Assembly (NCBI GenBank): GCA_964445085.1
Contig: CAYUJV010000001.1
Span: 812-64,811 of the forward strand
Length of the DNA stretch: 64,000 bases
Source of the DNA: an uncultured Burkholderiales bacterium
GTDB lineage: Bacteria; Pseudomonadota; Gammaproteobacteria; Burkholderiales; Thiobacteraceae
Direction of reading: 5' to 3'
The position numbers and the translations under genes are program-made. Positions within the stretch are counted from its first letter, which is position 1. Each line of letters starts with the position of its first letter. The notes below the pieces were generated by a model. It had not been told where the DNA came from. It was given only the letters and a program-made list of their open reading frames with translations, and did no database searches. Positions 4,274 to 35,797 of this stretch are shown one piece after another.

Positions 4274-4289
4274 TGTCGCAAAGCATACA
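4274..4289. promoter_or_regulatory. NifA-type UAS upstream of iscS
   Basis: TGTCGCAAAGCATACA fits TGT-N10-ACA and carries the extended TGTCGCAA half-site. It is centred about 88 bp upstream of the -24 element. Confidence 0.65.
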
Positions 4290-27664: not shown

Positions 27665-29309
<1,645 letters not shown>

Positions 29310-29338
29310 GTCGGCCCTTGCGTGTCGATTCCATCGAA

Positions 29339-29353
29339 GCAACGCCTGTGCCA
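29339..29353 (-). promoter_or_regulatory. sigma54 (-24/-12) promoter of the Rrf2 gene
   Basis: Minus strand reads TGGCAC-aggcg-TTGC, 30 bp upstream of the Rrf2 ATG. Confidence 0.55.
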
Positions 29354-29420: not shown

Positions 29421-29436
29421 TGTCGCAAACCATACA
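29421..29436. promoter_or_regulatory. NifA-type UAS shared by divergent promoters
   Basis: TGTCGCAAACCATACA. Centred about 77 bp from the minus-strand -24 and about 93 bp from the plus-strand -24. Confidence 0.6.
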
Positions 29437-29519
29437 CTCCGGCCCGGCTTGTCCGACATGCGACAGGCTTGGGTGGCGCGCCACCGCGCCAGGCCGCATG
29501 CCGACGAGGCCTGTGCGAT

Positions 29520-29535
29520 CGGAACACTTCTTGCT
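29520..29535 (+). promoter_or_regulatory. sigma54-like promoter (CGGAAC variant) of the receiver-draTG operon
   Basis: CGGAAC-acttc-TTGCT keeps the GG-N10-GC spacing. The same CGGAAC-N5-TTGC variant precedes amt. Confidence 0.45.
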
Positions 29536-29572
29536 CCACCCGTTTCCGCACAAGACACTCGGGAGAACAGAC

Positions 29573-29995
29573 ATGCAAATCGGCGTCGAAACCGCCAAGG
29601 CGGTGGACAACAAGCGCCTGTTCGTCGTGGCCAACGACGAGATCACCCGCATGGCGCTGCAGTTCATGCTGCACGACGAGAACGAGACCCACGACCTGCC
29701 CACGCTGGAGGCGGCCTTCGACAAGAGCATCGAGTGGAAGCCGGACCTGCTGCTGTTGGGCGTCGACATCGTGCAGGAGCGCGGCGTGGAAGTGCTCGCG
29801 CTCATCCGCTCGCGGCTGGCGGAAACGAAAATCCTGCTCGTGGGGGACACGCGCGACGATCCGCTGGTGGCCGCCTGCCAGCAGGCCGGGATCGACGGCC
29901 AGCTGTTCAAGCCGCTGACGGTGGAGGACGTGCGCAGAAAGGTGGACGGGCTGCTGGGGCGCAAGCGCGCCTCCATTCCGATTCACGCACTATGA
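29573..29995 (+). CDS. stand-alone response-regulator receiver domain protein
   Basis: CheY-like pattern: LFVVANDE ... PDLLLLGVD ... ILLVGDT ... LFKPL. 140 aa. Internal ATG of ORF 29318..29995. Confidence 0.7.
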   Translation: MQIGVETAKAVDNKRLFVVANDEITRMALQFMLHDENETHDLPTLEAAFDKSIEWKPDLLLLGVDIVQERGVEVLALIRSRLAETKILLVGDTRDDPLVAACQQAGIDGQLFKPLTVEDVRRKVDGLLGRKRASIPIHAL

Positions 29996-30810
29996 CCGTC
30001 GCCGCGCTGCGGGGACACAGCGCCAACCTGGTGGGCGTTCCCACCGGCCTGCTGGCGAGCGTCGCGTTCAACGAAGATCCGCTCCCTCTGCACATCCACG
30101 GCGTGCGTGCCGGCCATGCGCGGCTGTTCGATCTCCTGGCGACGGCGACCACACCCGCGGAGGCGGGGAAACGGTTTCAGGACTATATGGACGAGAGTTT
30201 CGACTTGCGCCCGAGGCAGACATCAGCCGGTGACGGCACCGTGCGCCGCTTCCGCGCCAGCTACCTGCGCCTGCTCAAGGGCTGGGGTTTCGACGCCAAC
30301 AGCCGCGAAGGGGCCGTCATCAAAGGCTGGGCGGAGAGCCGCTTCGGCCTGTTTCCGACCTTCCACAAGACAACACTCACGCGCTTTGGCTCCCAGGCCT
30401 GGGCGCGCTACGTGGAGGAGAAAATGTCCAGCCGCTTCCACAACAACGACATCTTCGGCCAGCTGGACCTGCTGTACGAATTTTGCCAGTGGTCGCTCGG
30501 CCGCTGGTTCCAGCCGGGACGGCGCCATGTGCGCCTGTACCGCGGCGTCAACGACTTCAGCGAGGACAGCCTGCTGCGCGGGCAGCCGAAGCCGCGCAGC
30601 GGGCCGGCCCTGGTGCGGCTGAACAACGTCGTCTCCTTCACCGCCCACCGCAGCATTGCCTGCGAATTCGGCGACTACATCCTGGAGGCCCTCGTGCCCA
30701 CCGTGAAGATCCTGTTCTTCAACGACCTGCTGCCGCGCCACGCGCTCAAGGGCGAAGCCGAATATCTGGCGATCGGCGGCGAGTACCGCGTCATGGTCAG
30801 CTATCTCTGA
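29992..30810 (+). CDS. draT: NAD+--dinitrogen-reductase ADP-D-ribosyltransferase DraT
   Basis: SANLVGVPTGLLASVAFNEDPLPLHIHGVR...FQDYMDESF...LYEFCQWS. ATGA overlap with the receiver gene. Confidence 0.85.
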   Translation: MTVAALRGHSANLVGVPTGLLASVAFNEDPLPLHIHGVRAGHARLFDLLATATTPAEAGKRFQDYMDESFDLRPRQTSAGDGTVRRFRASYLRLLKGWGFDANSREGAVIKGWAESRFGLFPTFHKTTLTRFGSQAWARYVEEKMSSRFHNNDIFGQLDLLYEFCQWSLGRWFQPGRRHVRLYRGVNDFSEDSLLRGQPKPRSGPALVRLNNVVSFTAHRSIACEFGDYILEALVPTVKILFFNDLLPRHALKGEAEYLAIGGEYRVMVSYL

Positions 30811-30819
30811 GAAGCGGCC

Positions 30820-31749
30820 GTGATCGGGGACGACGTGCAGGAACGCGCGCTGGGCGCCTATCTGGGCTTCGCCGTCGGCGACGCCCTGGGAGCAACGGTC
30901 GAATTCATGACAGCCGCCGAGATTCAACACAACTACGGCATGCACCGCGACATGATCGGTGGCGGCTGGCTCAAGCTCAGGCCGGGCGAGGTCACCGACG
31001 ACACGCAGATGTCCCTGGCGCTGGGACAGGCCATCGTCGACAGCGGCGGCTGGAATGCGCGCGCCGCCGCCGATGCTTTCGCCGCGTGGCTCAAGTCCAA
31101 ACCCATCGACGTGGGCAACACCTGCCGCCGCGGGATTCAGCGCTACATCATGGAGGGTACGCTGGCCGGCCCGCCCAACGAAGGCGACGCCGGCAACGGC
31201 GCCTGCATGCGCAACCTGCCGCTGGCGCTCGCGACGCTGACTGATGACGAAGCATTCGCGCGCGCGACCTTGGAGCAGTGCCACCTCACCCACCACCATC
31301 CCTTGTCGGACGCCGCCACGCTGGCCTTCGGAAGAATGACGCGCACCCTGATCCGCGGCGGCGGCTTCAGGGACTGCCGGGCGGAGGCGAACCGCCTGAT
31401 CGATGCGTTTCCGGTGTTCCGCTTCGACCCCTATCCCAGGCGCGCCTCGGGCTATATCGTCGATACGACCCAGACGGTGCTGCACTATTTTTTCCGCACC
31501 GACAACTTCGAGGATTGCGTGACCGAGGTGGTGAACCGCGGCGAGGACGCGGACACCAACGGCGCGCTGGCCGGCATGCTGGCGGGCGCCGCCTATGGCG
31601 TATCGGACATTCCGGGCTACTGGCTGAAGAAGCTGGACAAGAAAGTCCGGGCGCGCATCGAGGAGCAGACCGAGGCGCTGCTGGGCATCGCCGCCACAAT
31701 ACCCAAGGGGCAAGAATCGAGTCGGAAGCCCCGGCAACCTGCGCCCTGA
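30820..31749 (+). CDS. draG: ADP-ribosyl-[dinitrogen reductase] glycohydrolase DraG
   Basis: GTG start. ALGAYLGFAVGDALGATVEF...EVTDDTQM...GEDADTNGALAGMLAGA (ARH family signatures). Confidence 0.85.
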   Translation: MIGDDVQERALGAYLGFAVGDALGATVEFMTAAEIQHNYGMHRDMIGGGWLKLRPGEVTDDTQMSLALGQAIVDSGGWNARAAADAFAAWLKSKPIDVGNTCRRGIQRYIMEGTLAGPPNEGDAGNGACMRNLPLALATLTDDEAFARATLEQCHLTHHHPLSDAATLAFGRMTRTLIRGGGFRDCRAEANRLIDAFPVFRFDPYPRRASGYIVDTTQTVLHYFFRTDNFEDCVTEVVNRGEDADTNGALAGMLAGAAYGVSDIPGYWLKKLDKKVRARIEEQTEALLGIAATIPKGQESSRKPRQPAP

Positions 31750-31777
31750 ACCTTGTAATTTGAACTTTCGTGCCACC

Positions 31778-33826
31778 ATGGCCACTTTGATTTTTTATGA
31801 AAAGCCCGGCTGCGCGAACAATGCACGGCAGAAGCGGCTGCTGCTCGATGCCGGGCACGAACTCATCGTCCGCGACCTGCTGAGCGAGCCGTGGACGGCG
31901 CAGCGCCTGCTGACATTCTTCGACGGCCTGCCAGTCGCCGAGTGGTTCAACCGCGCCGCGCCGCAGGTGAAATCCGGCGAGATCGACCCGGCGCGCGTTG
32001 GGGCCGAGGCGGCGCTGAAACTGATGCTGAGCAATCCATTGCTGATCCGGCGTCCGCTGATCGAAGGGAACGGCTGGCGGCTTGCGGGCTTCGACGCCGA
32101 GTTCGTACGCAGGCACCTGGGCGTGGCACCGGACGATGCGCCGCGCGACCTCGAGTCCTGCCGCCGTCCACCTGGCGCGGCCCCCTGCCCCGCGCCCCAG
32201 GACAGCCGGCGCGCGGAGGTGGCGCTCGCCTACCACGAGCGCACCAAGCATCGCCCTGAGCGCTACGCCGCCGGTCCGGAGACCCTGGACTGGACGGGCC
32301 AGCCGGACCCGTTCCGTACATTCAAGGGAAGTCCCACCCTCCGCCTGCCGCTGTGCGGCGGGCGCCTGGCCACCTCCTTCGCCGGCATCTATACGCCAGA
32401 GGAAGTCTGGTCGCCGGCGCTATCGCTGGATGCGCTGGGCGCGCTGCTGGAACTGTCGCTCGGCCTGTCGGCGTGGAAGGAATACGGCCCGGACCGCTGG
32501 GCGCTGCGCTGCAACCCCTCCAGCGGCAACCTGCACCCGACCGAGGCCTACGTGATCGCGCGTGGCATCGCGGGACTGGATGACGGCCTCTATCACTACG
32601 CGAGCCGCAGCCACGCGCTGGAGCAACGCTGTCGCGCACCAGCGGATGGAGCGGCGAGCGAGCACGGGCTGTGGATCGGGCTCTCCTCGATCCACTGGCG
32701 CGAGGCGTGGAAATACGGCGAGCGTGCCTTTCGCTATTGCCAGCTCGACGTGGGCCATGCCCTGGCCGCGCTGCGCTACGCCGCCGGCGTGCTCGGCTGG
32801 CGGCTGCGCCTGGTGACGGCCTGCGAGCACTCGCATCTGGCGCGGCTGCTGGGCCTCGATCGGGTCGAGGATTTTCCCGGCGCGGAACGGGAGGACGCCG
32901 ACCTGCTGGTGCAGGTGCTGCCACGAACCGAACCCAAACTGACTGCCGCGGCGCCTGAGCCCTGGCCGGACGCGCACTCGATGTGGATGGGCCAGGCGAA
33001 TACCCTCGATCCCCATCCCATGTACAGCTGGCCGGTCATCGACGAAGTCGCGGCCGCCACGAAAAAAACCGGGCAGGCGACGGAAGCACCCGCGCGCAGC
33101 CAGTATCCGCCCGCGACCCCCGCCGCCGGGCTGCCCGCCGCCCAGGTCATCCTCGGCCGGCGCAGCGCGCAGCGTTTCGATCCGCAGTTCGTCCTGCCAG
33201 CCAAGGACTTTTTCCACCTGCTCGACAGCCTGCTTCACCGGCCGCACGCGCCGTGGGACGTATGGGACCATGGGCCCAGGGTTCATCCCGTTCTGTTCGT
33301 GCACCGCGTGGAGAGCATCGCGCCCGGGCTTTACATCCTGGTGCGTGCGCCGGACGCGGAGGTGCGGTTGCGCACGGCAATGAGCGATGAGTTCGAATGG
33401 GAACGCGTGCAAGGCTGCCCGGCACACCTTCCCCTGTTCCGCCTGCAGCCCGGCAAGTGGCACAAGGTCGCGCGCGCGGTGAGCTGCCAGCAGGCCATCG
33501 CCGCCGACAGCTGCTTCTCGCTGGGCATGCTGGCAGAGTTCGAACCCACCCTGCGGGAGGACGCCTGGCGCTACCGCCAGTTGCACTGGGAAGCAGGTCT
33601 GCTGGGGCACGTGCTGTATCTCGAAGCGGAAACGCTGGAGCTGCGCGGCACCGGCATCGGCTGCTTCCTCGACGATGCGTTCCACGAACTGCTGGGGCTG
33701 AAGGACCGCAGCTTCCAGTCCCTCTACCACTTCACGGTGGGCCGCGCGCTCAGCGACACGCGCATCACCACCCTGCCGCCTTACCCGGACCGCGAGGCGG
33801 TGCCCGACACGGAGCCCATGCCATGA
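31778..33826 (+). CDS. fusion protein: ArsC/Spx-fold 'nitrogenase-associated protein' domain plus tandem SagB/nitroreductase-like dehydrogenase domains
   Basis: N-terminus MATLIFYEKPGCANNARQKRLLLDAGHELIVRDLLSEPWT...WFNRAAPQVKSGEI. After a Pro/Ala linker comes AYHERTKHRPERYAAGPETLDWTGQPDPFR...CNPSSGNLHPTE...GIGCFLDD. Confidence 0.75.
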   Translation: MATLIFYEKPGCANNARQKRLLLDAGHELIVRDLLSEPWTAQRLLTFFDGLPVAEWFNRAAPQVKSGEIDPARVGAEAALKLMLSNPLLIRRPLIEGNGWRLAGFDAEFVRRHLGVAPDDAPRDLESCRRPPGAAPCPAPQDSRRAEVALAYHERTKHRPERYAAGPETLDWTGQPDPFRTFKGSPTLRLPLCGGRLATSFAGIYTPEEVWSPALSLDALGALLELSLGLSAWKEYGPDRWALRCNPSSGNLHPTEAYVIARGIAGLDDGLYHYASRSHALEQRCRAPADGAASEHGLWIGLSSIHWREAWKYGERAFRYCQLDVGHALAALRYAAGVLGWRLRLVTACEHSHLARLLGLDRVEDFPGAEREDADLLVQVLPRTEPKLTAAAPEPWPDAHSMWMGQANTLDPHPMYSWPVIDEVAAATKKTGQATEAPARSQYPPATPAAGLPAAQVILGRRSAQRFDPQFVLPAKDFFHLLDSLLHRPHAPWDVWDHGPRVHPVLFVHRVESIAPGLYILVRAPDAEVRLRTAMSDEFEWERVQGCPAHLPLFRLQPGKWHKVARAVSCQQAIAADSCFSLGMLAEFEPTLREDAWRYRQLHWEAGLLGHVLYLEAETLELRGTGIGCFLDDAFHELLGLKDRSFQSLYHFTVGRALSDTRITTLPPYPDREAVPDTEPMP

Positions 33827-34614
33827 GCCACGAAAAACCCTTTCAGCGCATCGACGCCGAAGCCGCGCGCCGCCTGCTCGCCCGCGGCAAGGTGCTGGTG
33901 CTGGATTCCCGCGACCAGGTTCGCTTCGACCTGGCGCACATTCCCACGGCGCGGCACCTGACCAGCGGCAATCTGGACGCCTTCGTGCTCGCCACGCCGA
34001 AAACCACGCCGGTGCTGATCTACTGCTACCACGGCAACGCGAGCCAAACCCACGCCCAGACCTTCGCCGACTTCGGCTTTGGCGAGGTCTACAGCCTGGA
34101 TGGCGGCTTCGCCGCTTGGCAGCGGGCGCAGCCGAAATCGTCCCCGCCCACGCTCACGCTGCGGCTTGCCCAATGGCTGCGGGAACATGGCTATCCCGCC
34201 GACGACCTCGACGCGGTGGCAGAACACGGCATGACGCCCCTGATGCGCGCCGCCAAGCTGGGCGACACGGCGATCGTGTTCGAACTGATCCAGAGCGGCG
34301 CCGCCCTCGACGCCACCAACGTGGACGGCAATACCGCGCTGTGGCTGGCCTGCGTGGGCGAAAGCCTGGAGGCCATCGACCTTCTCATCCGCGCCGGCGC
34401 GAACCCGGACCACCAGAACGATAACGGTGCCACCTGTCTGATGTATGCCGCCTCGACGGGAAAGCATCGGGTGGTGGAGCAGTTGCTGGCGTCCGGGGCG
34501 GACCCGCGGCTGAAGAGCCTGGACGATTTCACCGCGCTGGACATGGCGGCGACGATCGAGTGCCTGCGGACGTTGCGGAAGGCAACGAAAGACCCCACGC
34601 CGATGGCGGGCTGA
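33823..34614 (+). CDS. rhodanese (GlpE-type) - ankyrin-repeat fusion protein
   Basis: Active-site loop CYHGNAS and DGGFAAW, followed by ankyrin repeats (GMTPLMRAAKLGDTAIVFELIQSGAALDATNVDGNTALWLA...). ATGA overlap with the upstream gene. Confidence 0.75.
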   Translation: MSHEKPFQRIDAEAARRLLARGKVLVLDSRDQVRFDLAHIPTARHLTSGNLDAFVLATPKTTPVLIYCYHGNASQTHAQTFADFGFGEVYSLDGGFAAWQRAQPKSSPPTLTLRLAQWLREHGYPADDLDAVAEHGMTPLMRAAKLGDTAIVFELIQSGAALDATNVDGNTALWLACVGESLEAIDLLIRAGANPDHQNDNGATCLMYAASTGKHRVVEQLLASGADPRLKSLDDFTALDMAATIECLRTLRKATKDPTPMAG

Positions 34615-34705: not shown

Positions 34706-35572
34706 TCAGCCTGCGGCGGCCACGGGCTCGGGAGTCTGCGCGCCGCTCAACACGCTTTGAAACACCTCGAGCGGCATATCCAGCCGTTGGATATTCTGCT
34801 CCGCCAGGAAGCGCGCCTCGTTTTTGGTCAGTTCGCCCGGGAGCACGGCCCAGTGCACGTCGGAGGAACGCTTCATGATCTGGCGCGCGAAGGTCCGTTC
34901 CAACTGGTTGCGGAAGCGGCAGCCGAGGAAAAGGAAATGGCGGCCGGTGCGCAATTGCTGCACCACCTCCGGAATCGGGGTCTGGATGTCGATCTCGGTG
35001 AGCACTTCCACGAAGTCGGTGTCCGAGACCAGGAAATTCTTCGCCGGGCTGATCCCACCGAGGGGCTTGTACAGCAGCACCGGCCAGGTATCGGCTTCCT
35101 CGGGGTCGCCCTGGGCGCCATCCTGGCGGAAGTAGTGGGTCCAGGTGCCGAAGTGCTCGGACTGGCTGACGCCCTGCACCTGCCCCCACAGCAGCCGCGA
35201 CTGCAGCGCGGTCCCCATGGCGTTGTCGTACCAGGCGTCGACGATCAGCAGCGGCTCGCGCCGGATGGCGGCGATGGTGTGGTGCAGCACGGTGGGCGCC
35301 ACCGCGGGGGCAAAGGCCTCCGCCATGATTCCCACCAGGGTCTTGCGGTGCTTGAAGTTCTCGATGTACTGGGCGGCCGCCGTCAGGTTGCCGCGAATCT
35401 TGTGCGGCACGCTCGACTTCGCCACCAGGCGCTGCACCAGTTCTTCCGGCGACTTGGGCACCGGGCTTCCCCCCGGGACCAGATCGAGCATGCCCGGCCC
35501 CAGATAAGGCACGACGCTGCCCTCTTCCAGGTAGGCGGAAATCTCCTTCAGCAGCGCCGTAGTCTTGTCCAT
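34706..35572 (-). CDS. SIR2_2-like (SIR2-fold) protein, last gene of the nifB operon (tentative family call)
   Basis: By-eye match to the SIR2_2 pattern: VVPYLGPGM, LLIVDAWYDNAM, LLYKPLGG...FLVSDTDF, RHFLFLGCRF. 288 aa. Confidence 0.6.
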   Translation of the reverse strand: MDKTTALLKEISAYLEEGSVVPYLGPGMLDLVPGGSPVPKSPEELVQRLVAKSSVPHKIRGNLTAAAQYIENFKHRKTLVGIMAEAFAPAVAPTVLHHTIAAIRREPLLIVDAWYDNAMGTALQSRLLWGQVQGVSQSEHFGTWTHYFRQDGAQGDPEEADTWPVLLYKPLGGISPAKNFLVSDTDFVEVLTEIDIQTPIPEVVQQLRTGRHFLFLGCRFRNQLERTFARQIMKRSSDVHWAVLPGELTKNEARFLAEQNIQRLDMPLEVFQSVLSGAQTPEPVAAAG

Positions 35573-35584
35573 GATCGCTTCTCC

Positions 35585-35797
35585 TCAGGCCGCAGACGAT
35601 TTCAGTTGATCGATCTGCTGGCGCGGGATCCGGAAGATGGCACGCCCGCCGGACAGGACTTCATAGCAGTCGGTGGTGGCGCGGGTGAGCAGGTTGAACC
35701 AGTCCTGCGCACTGAGCGTACCCGGGCGCTCGCCGATTTCGGTGACGCTGCCGTTGGGGGCGAAGCGTACGTGGATCATGACCTTGTCGTTGTCCAT
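35585..35797 (-). CDS. hypothetical protein (70 aa)
   Basis: ORF-track ORF with a GGAGAG RBS, 16 bp after the ferredoxin gene. No recognisable domain. Confidence 0.55.
   Translation of the reverse strand: MDNDKVMIHVRFAPNGSVTEIGERPGTLSAQDWFNLLTRATTDCYEVLSGGRAIFRIPRQQIDQLKSSAA

Follow-up and report, generated by a model that had tools for sequence, protein, structure and literature searches.

draT-draG in a probable NifA-controlled operon headed by an aspartate-less receiver in an uncultured Burkholderiales bacterium

Gene content of the locus

We analysed a stretch of 64,000 nucleotides (hereafter the window, in whose numbering all positions are given) from an uncultured Burkholderiales bacterium of the Thiobacteraceae (GenBank assembly GCA_964445085.1, contig CAYUJV010000001.1), and in it a unit of five plus-strand genes that contains draT and draG, the genes for reversible ADP-ribosylation of NifH. 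An earlier note on this DNA had read the other three genes of the unit as an additional signal route, by phosphorylation or by redox or persulfide state, into post-translational nitrogenase control. Our analysis points instead to a variant of the known draTGB-type layout, in which draT and draG lie within a conserved set of nif-neighbouring genes headed by a receiver that lacks the phospho-acceptor aspartate. The five genes are:

29573-29995, plus strand: aspartate-less single-domain receiver of 140 amino acids, 'MQIGV...QFMLHDENETH' family (PF00072, 41.7 bits against a cutoff of 30.2)
29992-30810, plus strand: draT, dinitrogenase reductase ADP-ribosyltransferase, 272 amino acids (PF07357, 1.6e-102, profile positions 2-255 of 256)
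30820-31749, plus strand: draG, ADP-ribosyl-[dinitrogen reductase] hydrolase, 309 amino acids, GTG start (TIGR02662, 456.8 bits against a cutoff of 337.05)
31778-33826, plus strand: NifO/DraB::tandem-SagB fusion, 682 amino acids (TIGR01616, 153.7 bits against a cutoff of 109; TIGR03605, 106.8 bits against a cutoff of 78.4)
33823-34614, plus strand: rhodanese::ankyrin protein, 263 amino acids, about four ankyrin repeats (PF00581, 65 bits; PF12796 and PF00023)

The Pfam and NCBIfam profile scores agree with the domain calls of the earlier note, and the close packing that it described was confirmed at every coordinate. As read from the sequence, the receiver and draT share an ATGA overlap at 29992-29995, draT and draG are 9 nt apart (30811-30819), draG and the fusion are 28 nt apart (31750-31777), and the fusion and the rhodanese::ankyrin gene again share an ATGA overlap at 33823-33826. 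A public metagenome contig (locus L001) carries an identical locus, called with the same five genes. The window has about 65% G+C and represents a nif region: nifHDK lies on the minus strand directly to the left of the five-gene unit, and scattered Pfam scans revealed nifV-like, fixC-like, nifB, nifA and other genes. The translation of nifH contains the CAGRG site expected from the earlier note, in a GxGCAGRG context with the target Arg, a putative site of modification. The genes draT, draG and the NifO/DraB-like gene follow one another on one strand in the order of draTGB. The five genes very probably form one operon that is switched on together with nitrogenase.

Promoter region

The 263-nt gap between the receiver gene and a divergent Rrf2-family gene holds four elements:

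29421-29436: NifA-type upstream activator site 1, TGTCGCAAACCATACA (motif enrichment and conservation; putative NifA binding)
29450-29465: NifA-type upstream activator site 2, TGTCCGACATGCGACA, 29 nt from site 1 (motif enrichment and conservation)
29520-29535, plus strand: putative sigma-54 -24/-12 promoter of the receiver operon, CGGAACACTTCTTGCT, with GG at 29521-22 and GC at 29533-34 (positional conservation; predicted transcription)
29338-29353, minus strand: perfect sigma-54 promoter for the divergent Rrf2 gene, TGGCACAGGCGTTGCT (0 mismatches to TGGCAC-N5-TTGCT)

The window contains 14 copies of the motif TGT-N10-ACA where 5.7 would be expected, and 0 of 100 shuffles gave as many. Both copies listed above sit in this gap; the second, TGTCCGACATGCGACA, is nearly identical in the Sulfuriferula and Thiobacillus loci. 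The upstream TGT-N10-ACA element reported in the earlier note therefore stands, as a pair of sites belonging to an enriched motif class. The CGGAAC-N5-TTGC element of that note is likewise present, in the form CGGAAC-N5-TTGCT, but it differs from TGGCAC-N5-TTGCW at two positions, and within the window alone -24/-12 matches with two mismatches are at chance level (40 found against 37 expected). We compared 81 loci with receivers of the same family (42-100% identity), holding GG-N10-GC fixed and allowing at most 3 mismatches. In 68 of the 81, the plus strand carries such a match 25-120 nt ahead of the receiver ATG, mostly at -47 to -68, with a separate group at about -125 to -133. Because a match recurs at a comparable position in so many loci, we rejected a mere chance match, and the element is probably real.

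One or two TGT-N10-ACA sites lie 100-270 nt upstream in nearly all receiver loci with sufficient upstream sequence, and most related loci have a near-perfect sigma-54 promoter facing the opposite way, towards Rrf2 or nifH. This conservation across loci therefore suggests that the region is a divergent promoter pair of the NifA type. The centres of the two upstream sites are about 88 and 117 nt from the predicted transcription start, in keeping with the layout of the NifA/sigma-54 regulon, in which TGT-N10-ACA sites stand about 80-150 nt upstream of a GG-N10-GC promoter. The perfect minus-strand promoter at 29338-29353, overlooked in the first reading of this DNA, would use the same two sites. 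By analogy with known NifA sites and -24/-12 promoters, the operon is probably under NifA and sigma-54 control.

An extended form of the upstream site, TGTCGCAA-N5-TACA, occurs at five places in the window (750, 4274, 10867, 29421 and 43592). Those at 4274 and 10867 are each followed, about 80-85 nt downstream, by a perfect TGGCAC-N5-TTGCT on the plus strand (4368 and 10966), and further perfect promoters are present on the minus strand at 144, 28697 and 45464. Together, the extended sites and the perfect promoters likely outline the NifA regulon of the window.

The receiver

The AlphaFold2 (AF2) model of the receiver has the (beta-alpha)5 fold with five strand-helix units, at a predicted local distance difference test score (pLDDT) of 87.3, and Foldseek matched it to Spo0F (template modelling scores 0.74/0.86) as well as to CheY structures. 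In alignments with CheY, Spo0F, PhoB and NtrC, its 'PDLLLLG' aligns with 'PDLxxxD', which places Gly63, the residue at which strand beta3 ends in the model, at the position of CheY D57. HMMER alignments to solved receivers, PhoP and VraR included, put Gly at the acceptor Asp position every time. Other catalytic positions are altered too: the acid pair after beta1 reads N21-D22, with Asn21 in place of CheY Asp12, and Gly91 stands at the position of CheY Thr87. Where CheY has K109 the window protein retains a lysine (K113), but two distant members show R or Q there. Among 75 metagenomic members of the family, the acceptor position is G in 67, A in 7, S in 1 and D in none.

The protein is an aspartate-less (pseudo-)receiver, and the acceptor Asp is replaced throughout its family. 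Since the acceptor Asp is absent family-wide and the Thr87 equivalent is lost, we conclude that the receiver is not a phosphorylation switch; judged from these residues, it cannot be phosphorylated in the canonical way and is not a canonical two-component input. The phosphorylation route that the earlier note had envisaged is thus not supported. With the acceptor Asp missing, neither a cognate kinase nor an Asp-to-Ala mutant would be an apt test, and hunting for the kinase would waste effort.

The family is large, searches with two of its members giving 1247 and 1678 matches, and every source name shown for the homologues was a generic response-regulator or CheY-like label. The receiver is better conserved than its neighbours (80-88% against 67-80% identity), and its homologue from a metagenome-assembled genome (MAG) of Acidithiobacillus ferriphilus (P0220) is 83% identical to the window protein. 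Two parts are invariant in the family, the N-terminal peptide MQIGV and the helix 1 motif 'LQFML.D..ETH'. The MQIGV peptide, within residues 1-10 (29573-29602), is predicted to be disordered (pLDDT <50), as expected of a short binding motif, and a single Cys, Cys102 (29876-29878), is nearly invariant in the family. We regard the MQIGV peptide and Cys102 as candidate functional sites. Aspartate-less receivers such as the KaiA N-domain, FrzS and HP1043 are thought to act by protein-protein contacts and not by phosphotransfer, and the window receiver, too, probably works as a binding adaptor.

The NifO/DraB::SagB fusion and the rhodanese::ankyrin protein

The 682-residue fusion consists of a NifO/DraB-like domain of the ArsC fold (residues 1-117), a linker (118-140) and a tandem SagB-type flavin nitroreductase (141-676); its AF2 model has a pLDDT of 83.1, with the linker disordered. 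The match to TIGR01616, 'nitrogenase-associated protein', spans residues 2-128, and the KPGC cysteine, the N-terminal Cys of the ArsC/Spx fold, is kept in 53 of 55 NifO-like homologues. The ArsC-like part, named ArsC in the earlier note, is thus no new element but NifO/DraB, the known third gene of the draTGB operon of Azospirillum brasilense and Rhodospirillum rubrum, to which no defined specific function has been assigned (PMC5249018). In its co-occurrence, NifO tracks nif genes (r = 0.635) more closely than it does draTG (r = 0.454).

The best Foldseek match of the fusion was PDB 3EO7 (E = 9.9e-27; 6.2e-32 in a separate comparison), followed by BmdC, ThcOx and McbC, and by ArsC/Spx for the N-terminal domain. 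The fusion contains RRSAQRF, which we take to be a flavin mononucleotide (FMN)-type motif. A role for this part as an azoline oxidase of ribosomally synthesised and post-translationally modified peptides (RiPPs) was considered and rejected: near the fusion or its counterparts in the window and in loci L001, L162 and L164 no YcaO or cyclodehydratase gene was seen, which makes a peptide-azoline role unlikely (a precursor-peptide gene was not searched for). The neighbours at these four places are nif, dra, Rieske, ankyrin and SIR2_2 genes. Fused and unfused forms of NifO/SagB2 are both widespread, and the unfused form probably also accounts for the 558-aa 'nitroreductase' of the nif cluster of Dechloromonas (PMC2907700).

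In the last protein of the operon the rhodanese active loop, of the form Cys-X5-(S/T/R), reads CYHGNAS, as in GlpE-like proteins. The full loop is found in 15 of 22 homologues and its Cys in all 22; the score against the GlpE profile NF001195 was 95.8 bits, slightly below the cutoff of 102. We found no second copy of NifO, the receiver or the rhodanese in the window.

Conservation of gene order

The surroundings of draT were scanned in 80 genome loci out of 588 relatives, and those of the receiver in 80 metagenome loci out of 431 relatives, in each case over flanks of 6-10 kb. A library-wide search for DraT returned only 305 cluster representatives, all DraT-like. By DraT identity, the closest genomes are those of Sulfuriferula (79-80%) and a Thiobacillus MAG (76%). 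In the draT scan, the five-gene layout was found in 4 loci beyond the window's own contig, namely three of Sulfuriferula and an unfused variant (L006); the Thiobacillus contig ends after the NifO-like region, and in three more loci distant receivers (42-46% identity) lie upstream of draT. A co-directional, stand-alone NifO-like gene directly follows draG in about 20 of the 80 draT loci, mostly of alphaproteobacteria, and in none of these was a receiver, SagB2 or rhodanese::ankyrin gene present. The same three genes were absent from all alphaproteobacterial draT loci retrieved.

The synteny survey of draTG loci that the earlier note had proposed, once extended to the receiver, gave a result at odds with a dedicated input to DraT and DraG: the receiver and the redox module recur at nifH, mostly without draT or draG. 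A draT gene lies within 1.5 kb downstream of the receiver in 20 of the 71 loci with room for it, as against a divergent nifH within 2.6 kb in 32 of the 33 loci with upstream room, and on these figures we rejected the receiver as a DraT-specific partner. What follows the receiver varies: draT-draG and further genes, draG alone, nifO(::sagB2)-rhd-ank or a rhodanese gene; in some loci the convergent SIR2_2 gene comes next with nothing in between. The stop codon of the receiver gene overlaps the next start at draT in 12 loci, at nifO in 4, at draG in 3 and at a rhodanese gene in 2.

The fusion boundaries move and the order stays fixed, from [NifO::SagB2][Rhd::Ank] in the window to [NifO][SagB2::Rhd][Ank] in L164, where the receiver precedes an ArsC-like, a SagB2::rhodanese and an ankyrin gene. 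Methylococcus capsulatus Bath (L162) has [NifO][SagB2] and neither rhodanese nor ankyrin, and L136 has NifO, a rhodanese, a globin and Ank::Rieske. Because domain order is constant while fusion points differ, the NifO, SagB2, rhodanese and ankyrin proteins appear to work together; there is good evidence from these arrangements that they act jointly and independently of draTG. Regarding the redox or sulfur route of the earlier note, thiol, flavin and persulfide chemistry is plausible for these proteins, but the genes are not dedicated to DraT and DraG.

Some loci deviate in informative ways. Three with receivers 81-85% identical (L093, L094 and L095) have no draT, and the receiver stop overlaps the draG start (ATGA); SagB2 follows draG in all three, with Rhd::Ank next in L094. 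In L084, L091 and L098-L100, also with 81-85% identical receivers and without draT, draG comes after a gap of >30 nt. About 1 kb separates the receiver from draT in L107-L109, L112, L115, L117 and L129; in the corresponding stretch of L108, neither a 360-aa minus-strand open reading frame (ORF) nor a 194-aa plus-strand ORF had a Pfam match. Equivalent operons of other diazotrophs contain a truncated globin, Rieske or ankyrin::Rieske gene (L136 7083-8589; L108 9429-9977; L162 4929-5255), and O2/redox handling may therefore be the theme of the variable part.

Flanking genes

Three minus-strand genes next to the operon were characterized:

27665-28555, minus strand: nifH, with the CAGRG site (perfect sigma-54 promoter at 28697-28712; upstream sites at 28782 and 28812)
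28854-29309, minus strand: Rrf2-family (IscR/NsrR-like) regulator, between the receiver and nifH (PF02082, 1.8e-29; TIGR00738, 102.8 bits)
34706-35572, minus strand: SIR2_2-domain gene, convergent with the operon (PF13289, 2.3e-19; no NCBIfam match)

An Rrf2 gene stands in that place only in the Thiobacillus/Sulfuriferula-like clade. The SIR2_2 gene is the last of a minus-strand nif operon that also comprises nifS-like, nifT, DUF6129, DegT and Fer2 genes and a 70-aa ORF; among the minus-strand neighbours are a NifS-like class-V aminotransferase, NifZ, NifT and a gene for Fe-S biogenesis. Convergence of a SIR2_2 gene with the receiver/draTG operon recurs in many diazotroph loci, including that of M. 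capsulatus Bath (L162 9618-10460), and the presence of an NAD-dependent SIR2_2 family beside an NAD-consuming ADP-ribosylation system is suggestive. The 70-aa ORF (35585-35797, minus strand), between Fer2 and SIR2_2, had no family match; M. capsulatus Bath has a small ORF of 76 aa at the same position.

Interpretation of the operon

We consider the locus best explained, with a probability of about 0.6, as a single NifA/sigma-54-dependent operon of two layers, a nif-accessory module with draTG inserted, divergent from Rrf2-nifHDK. The first layer would be a conserved nif-accessory operon that stands beside nifH in many proteobacterial diazotrophs, in the order aspartate-less receiver, NifO/DraB-like thiol protein, tandem SagB-type flavoprotein, rhodanese and ankyrin-repeat protein. 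The second layer would be draT-draG, placed in this lineage between the receiver and nifO, with a draG-draB junction as in the classical draTGB; draTG may have been inserted in this lineage or lost from the module elsewhere. Active NifA would bind both sites at 29421-29465 and fire both divergent promoters, so that DraT, DraG and the accessory proteins would be made alongside nitrogenase. DraT and DraG would act on NifH Arg101 as in known systems, and the receiver, by way of helix 1 and the invariant peptide at its N-terminus, would be a constitutive adaptor that binds other proteins. A cysteine/flavin/persulfide redox unit could be formed by NifO::SagB2 and Rhd::Ank for nitrogenase generally, in protection, maturation or redox sensing, and not for DraT and DraG in particular, and the accessory module would thereby have a redox or sulfur role towards nitrogenase.

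Several points weigh against this reading. Where draTG is present, no junction is commoner than the ATGA overlap between receiver and draT (12 loci), and a lineage-specific interaction between receiver and DraT is therefore possible. M. capsulatus Texas has a separate draT (L026), and draTG may sit elsewhere in other genomes too. PMC5249018 refers to evidence that in R. rubrum the DraB homologue seems to regulate DraG activity; if this holds, at least NifO/DraB is tied to the switch. Lastly, co-transcription and NifA dependence in this organism are predictions from its DNA. A specific input to DraG or DraT in this lineage nevertheless strikes us as doubtful.

The same observations can be used to argue that the receiver, NifO::SagB2 and Rhd::Ank are dedicated sensors through which phosphorylation, redox or persulfide signals reach DraT and DraG and so control NifH ADP-ribosylation. 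Their shared operon, the receiver-draT coupling, the position of draB/nifO directly after draG in 20 of 80 draT loci and the R. rubrum DraB report would all suit such sensors, and energy switch-off in R. rubrum is independent of AmtB1 and AmtB2 (PMC6067124), so that other inputs are possible. We nonetheless consider this unlikely, given that the phospho-acceptor Asp is found nowhere in the receiver family, that 51 of 71 receiver loci have no draT within 1.5 kb downstream, that the module stands in M. capsulatus Bath without an intervening draTG, that close relatives retain the receiver with draT gone, that the alphaproteobacterial draT loci retrieved have none of the three genes, and that NifO keeps company with nif genes more than with draTG. 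Phosphorylation might be rescued by supposing a true phospho-receiver that uses D65, two residues past the canonical site. All close relatives share D65 with the window protein, and Lys113 is kept, but Asp at this position is limited to that close clade, and 48 of the 68 members scored have G, P, A, E, S, N or T there; in the AF2 model D65 falls at the start of helix 3 and not at the end of beta3, and the Thr87 equivalent is absent. We rejected this shifted phospho-site and hold it to be extremely improbable.

Two further explanations give the accessory genes other tasks. The receiver could be a transcriptional feedback protein that binds NifA, PII or sigma-54 holoenzyme, the downstream genes being passengers. 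It is the near-universal first gene opposite nifH, behind shared NifA-type sites, it is conserved above its neighbours, and the window contains nifA with no nifL seen among the genes scanned, as papers on A. ferrooxidans also report for that organism. It has no DNA-binding or other output domain, however, any contact with NifA would be hypothetical, and the fixed order, shifting fusions and stop-start overlaps point to partners rather than passengers, all of which makes this distinctly unlikely. The genes might alternatively supply cofactor, with NifO handling Mo, the rhodanese giving sulfur and the flavoprotein giving reductant for FeMo-co or Fe-S clusters, and with draTG nearby by nif clustering. 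Consistent with this are the conserved catalytic cysteines of NifO and the rhodanese and the minus-strand NifS-like, NifZ, NifT and Fe-S-biogenesis neighbours; A. vinelandii, moreover, presumably has the order nifB-fdxN-nifO-nifQ followed by the rhodanese gene rhdN. A link between NifO and the partitioning of Mo in A. vinelandii is described in PMC5249018. The globin, Rieske and ankyrin genes of related operons suit O2/redox handling better, though, and the receiver-like head of the operon is left unaccounted for. Cofactor supply also overlaps with the two-layer operon that we favour, only the proposed target differing, and as a separate explanation we find it highly doubtful.

A bolder reading can be imagined, in which the MQIGV receiver, NifO, SagB, rhodanese and ankyrin make up a NifA-controlled thiol, flavin and persulfide complex that senses redox state and reports redox, O2 or sulfur status to nitrogenase, either through the inserted DraT and DraG or, in organisms such as Methylococcus, directly on NifH or NifA. 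Such a complex is speculative and we would not bet on it; if real, its action through DraT and DraG might account for an AmtB-independent energy or redox switch-off input. The locus in any case defines a conserved nif-neighbour module of an aspartate-less receiver with NifO, tandem SagB, rhodanese and ankyrin proteins, and it offers likely partners for NifO/DraB, which has posed an open question since the early 1990s. Among culturable organisms, M. capsulatus Bath, Sulfuriferula multivorans and probably A. ferrooxidans carry the module in whole or in part. None of the papers found in our literature search mentions the missing Asp, the NifO::SagB fusion, the Rhd::Ank gene or a connection with nifH.

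Comparison with known systems

Like draTGB of R. rubrum and A. brasilense, the window operon has draT, draG and then a NifO/DraB-like gene (TIGR01616), diverges from nifH, and has intact DraT and DraG families and the Arg101 context in NifH. It differs in that DraB is the N-terminal domain of a 682-aa protein, joined by the disordered linker to a tandem SagB region of 540 aa, and not a stand-alone protein of about 150 aa (stand-alone DraB/NifO forms do occur in other loci surveyed), and in having the receiver before draT with an ATGA overlap, the rhodanese::ankyrin gene behind and a sigma-54/NifA-type promoter. The order receiver-draT-draG was noted for Acidithiobacillus ferrooxidans ATCC 23270 (AFE1523-AFE1527) in the 2008 genome paper (PMC2621215), which treats the receiver as an ordinary response regulator and makes no mention of the missing Asp, the fusion or a rhodanese::ankyrin gene. 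Compared with AFE1523-AFE1527, nifA of the window lies about 9 kb further on.

M. capsulatus Bath (AE017282, L162) resembles the window in that a same-family receiver (MQIGV..., with Gly in place of the acceptor) lies opposite nifH, and in having an ArsC-like NifO gene with an overlapping 529-aa tandem SagB gene, and convergent SIR2_2, Fer2, DegT, DUF6129 and NifT genes. It differs in that neither draT nor draG separates the receiver from nifO, that NifO and SagB2 are separate proteins, that a Rieske gene comes between the receiver and the ArsC-like gene, and that the rhodanese::ankyrin gene is absent. An insertion sequence (IS) element with a DDE_Tnp_1 transposase (L162 3090-4190) directly follows the Bath receiver gene and may uncouple the Rieske, NifO and SagB2 genes from the receiver promoter.

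At the protein level, the SagB part shares the tandem nitroreductase fold and SagB-type signature motifs with 3EO7, McbC, ThcOx and BmdC. Its closest solved relative, 3EO7, is the uncharacterised Ava_2154 of Anabaena variabilis; from McbC, ThcOx and BmdC it differs in having no visible YcaO or cyclodehydratase partner. The rhodanese, unlike the single-domain GlpE, is fused to ankyrin repeats. With the KaiA N-domain, FrzS and HP1043 the receiver has in common a (beta-alpha)5 fold without the phospho-acceptor Asp, and it is set apart from them as a stand-alone protein of 140 aa with an invariant N-terminal peptide and helix-1 motif, tied to nifH neighbourhoods.

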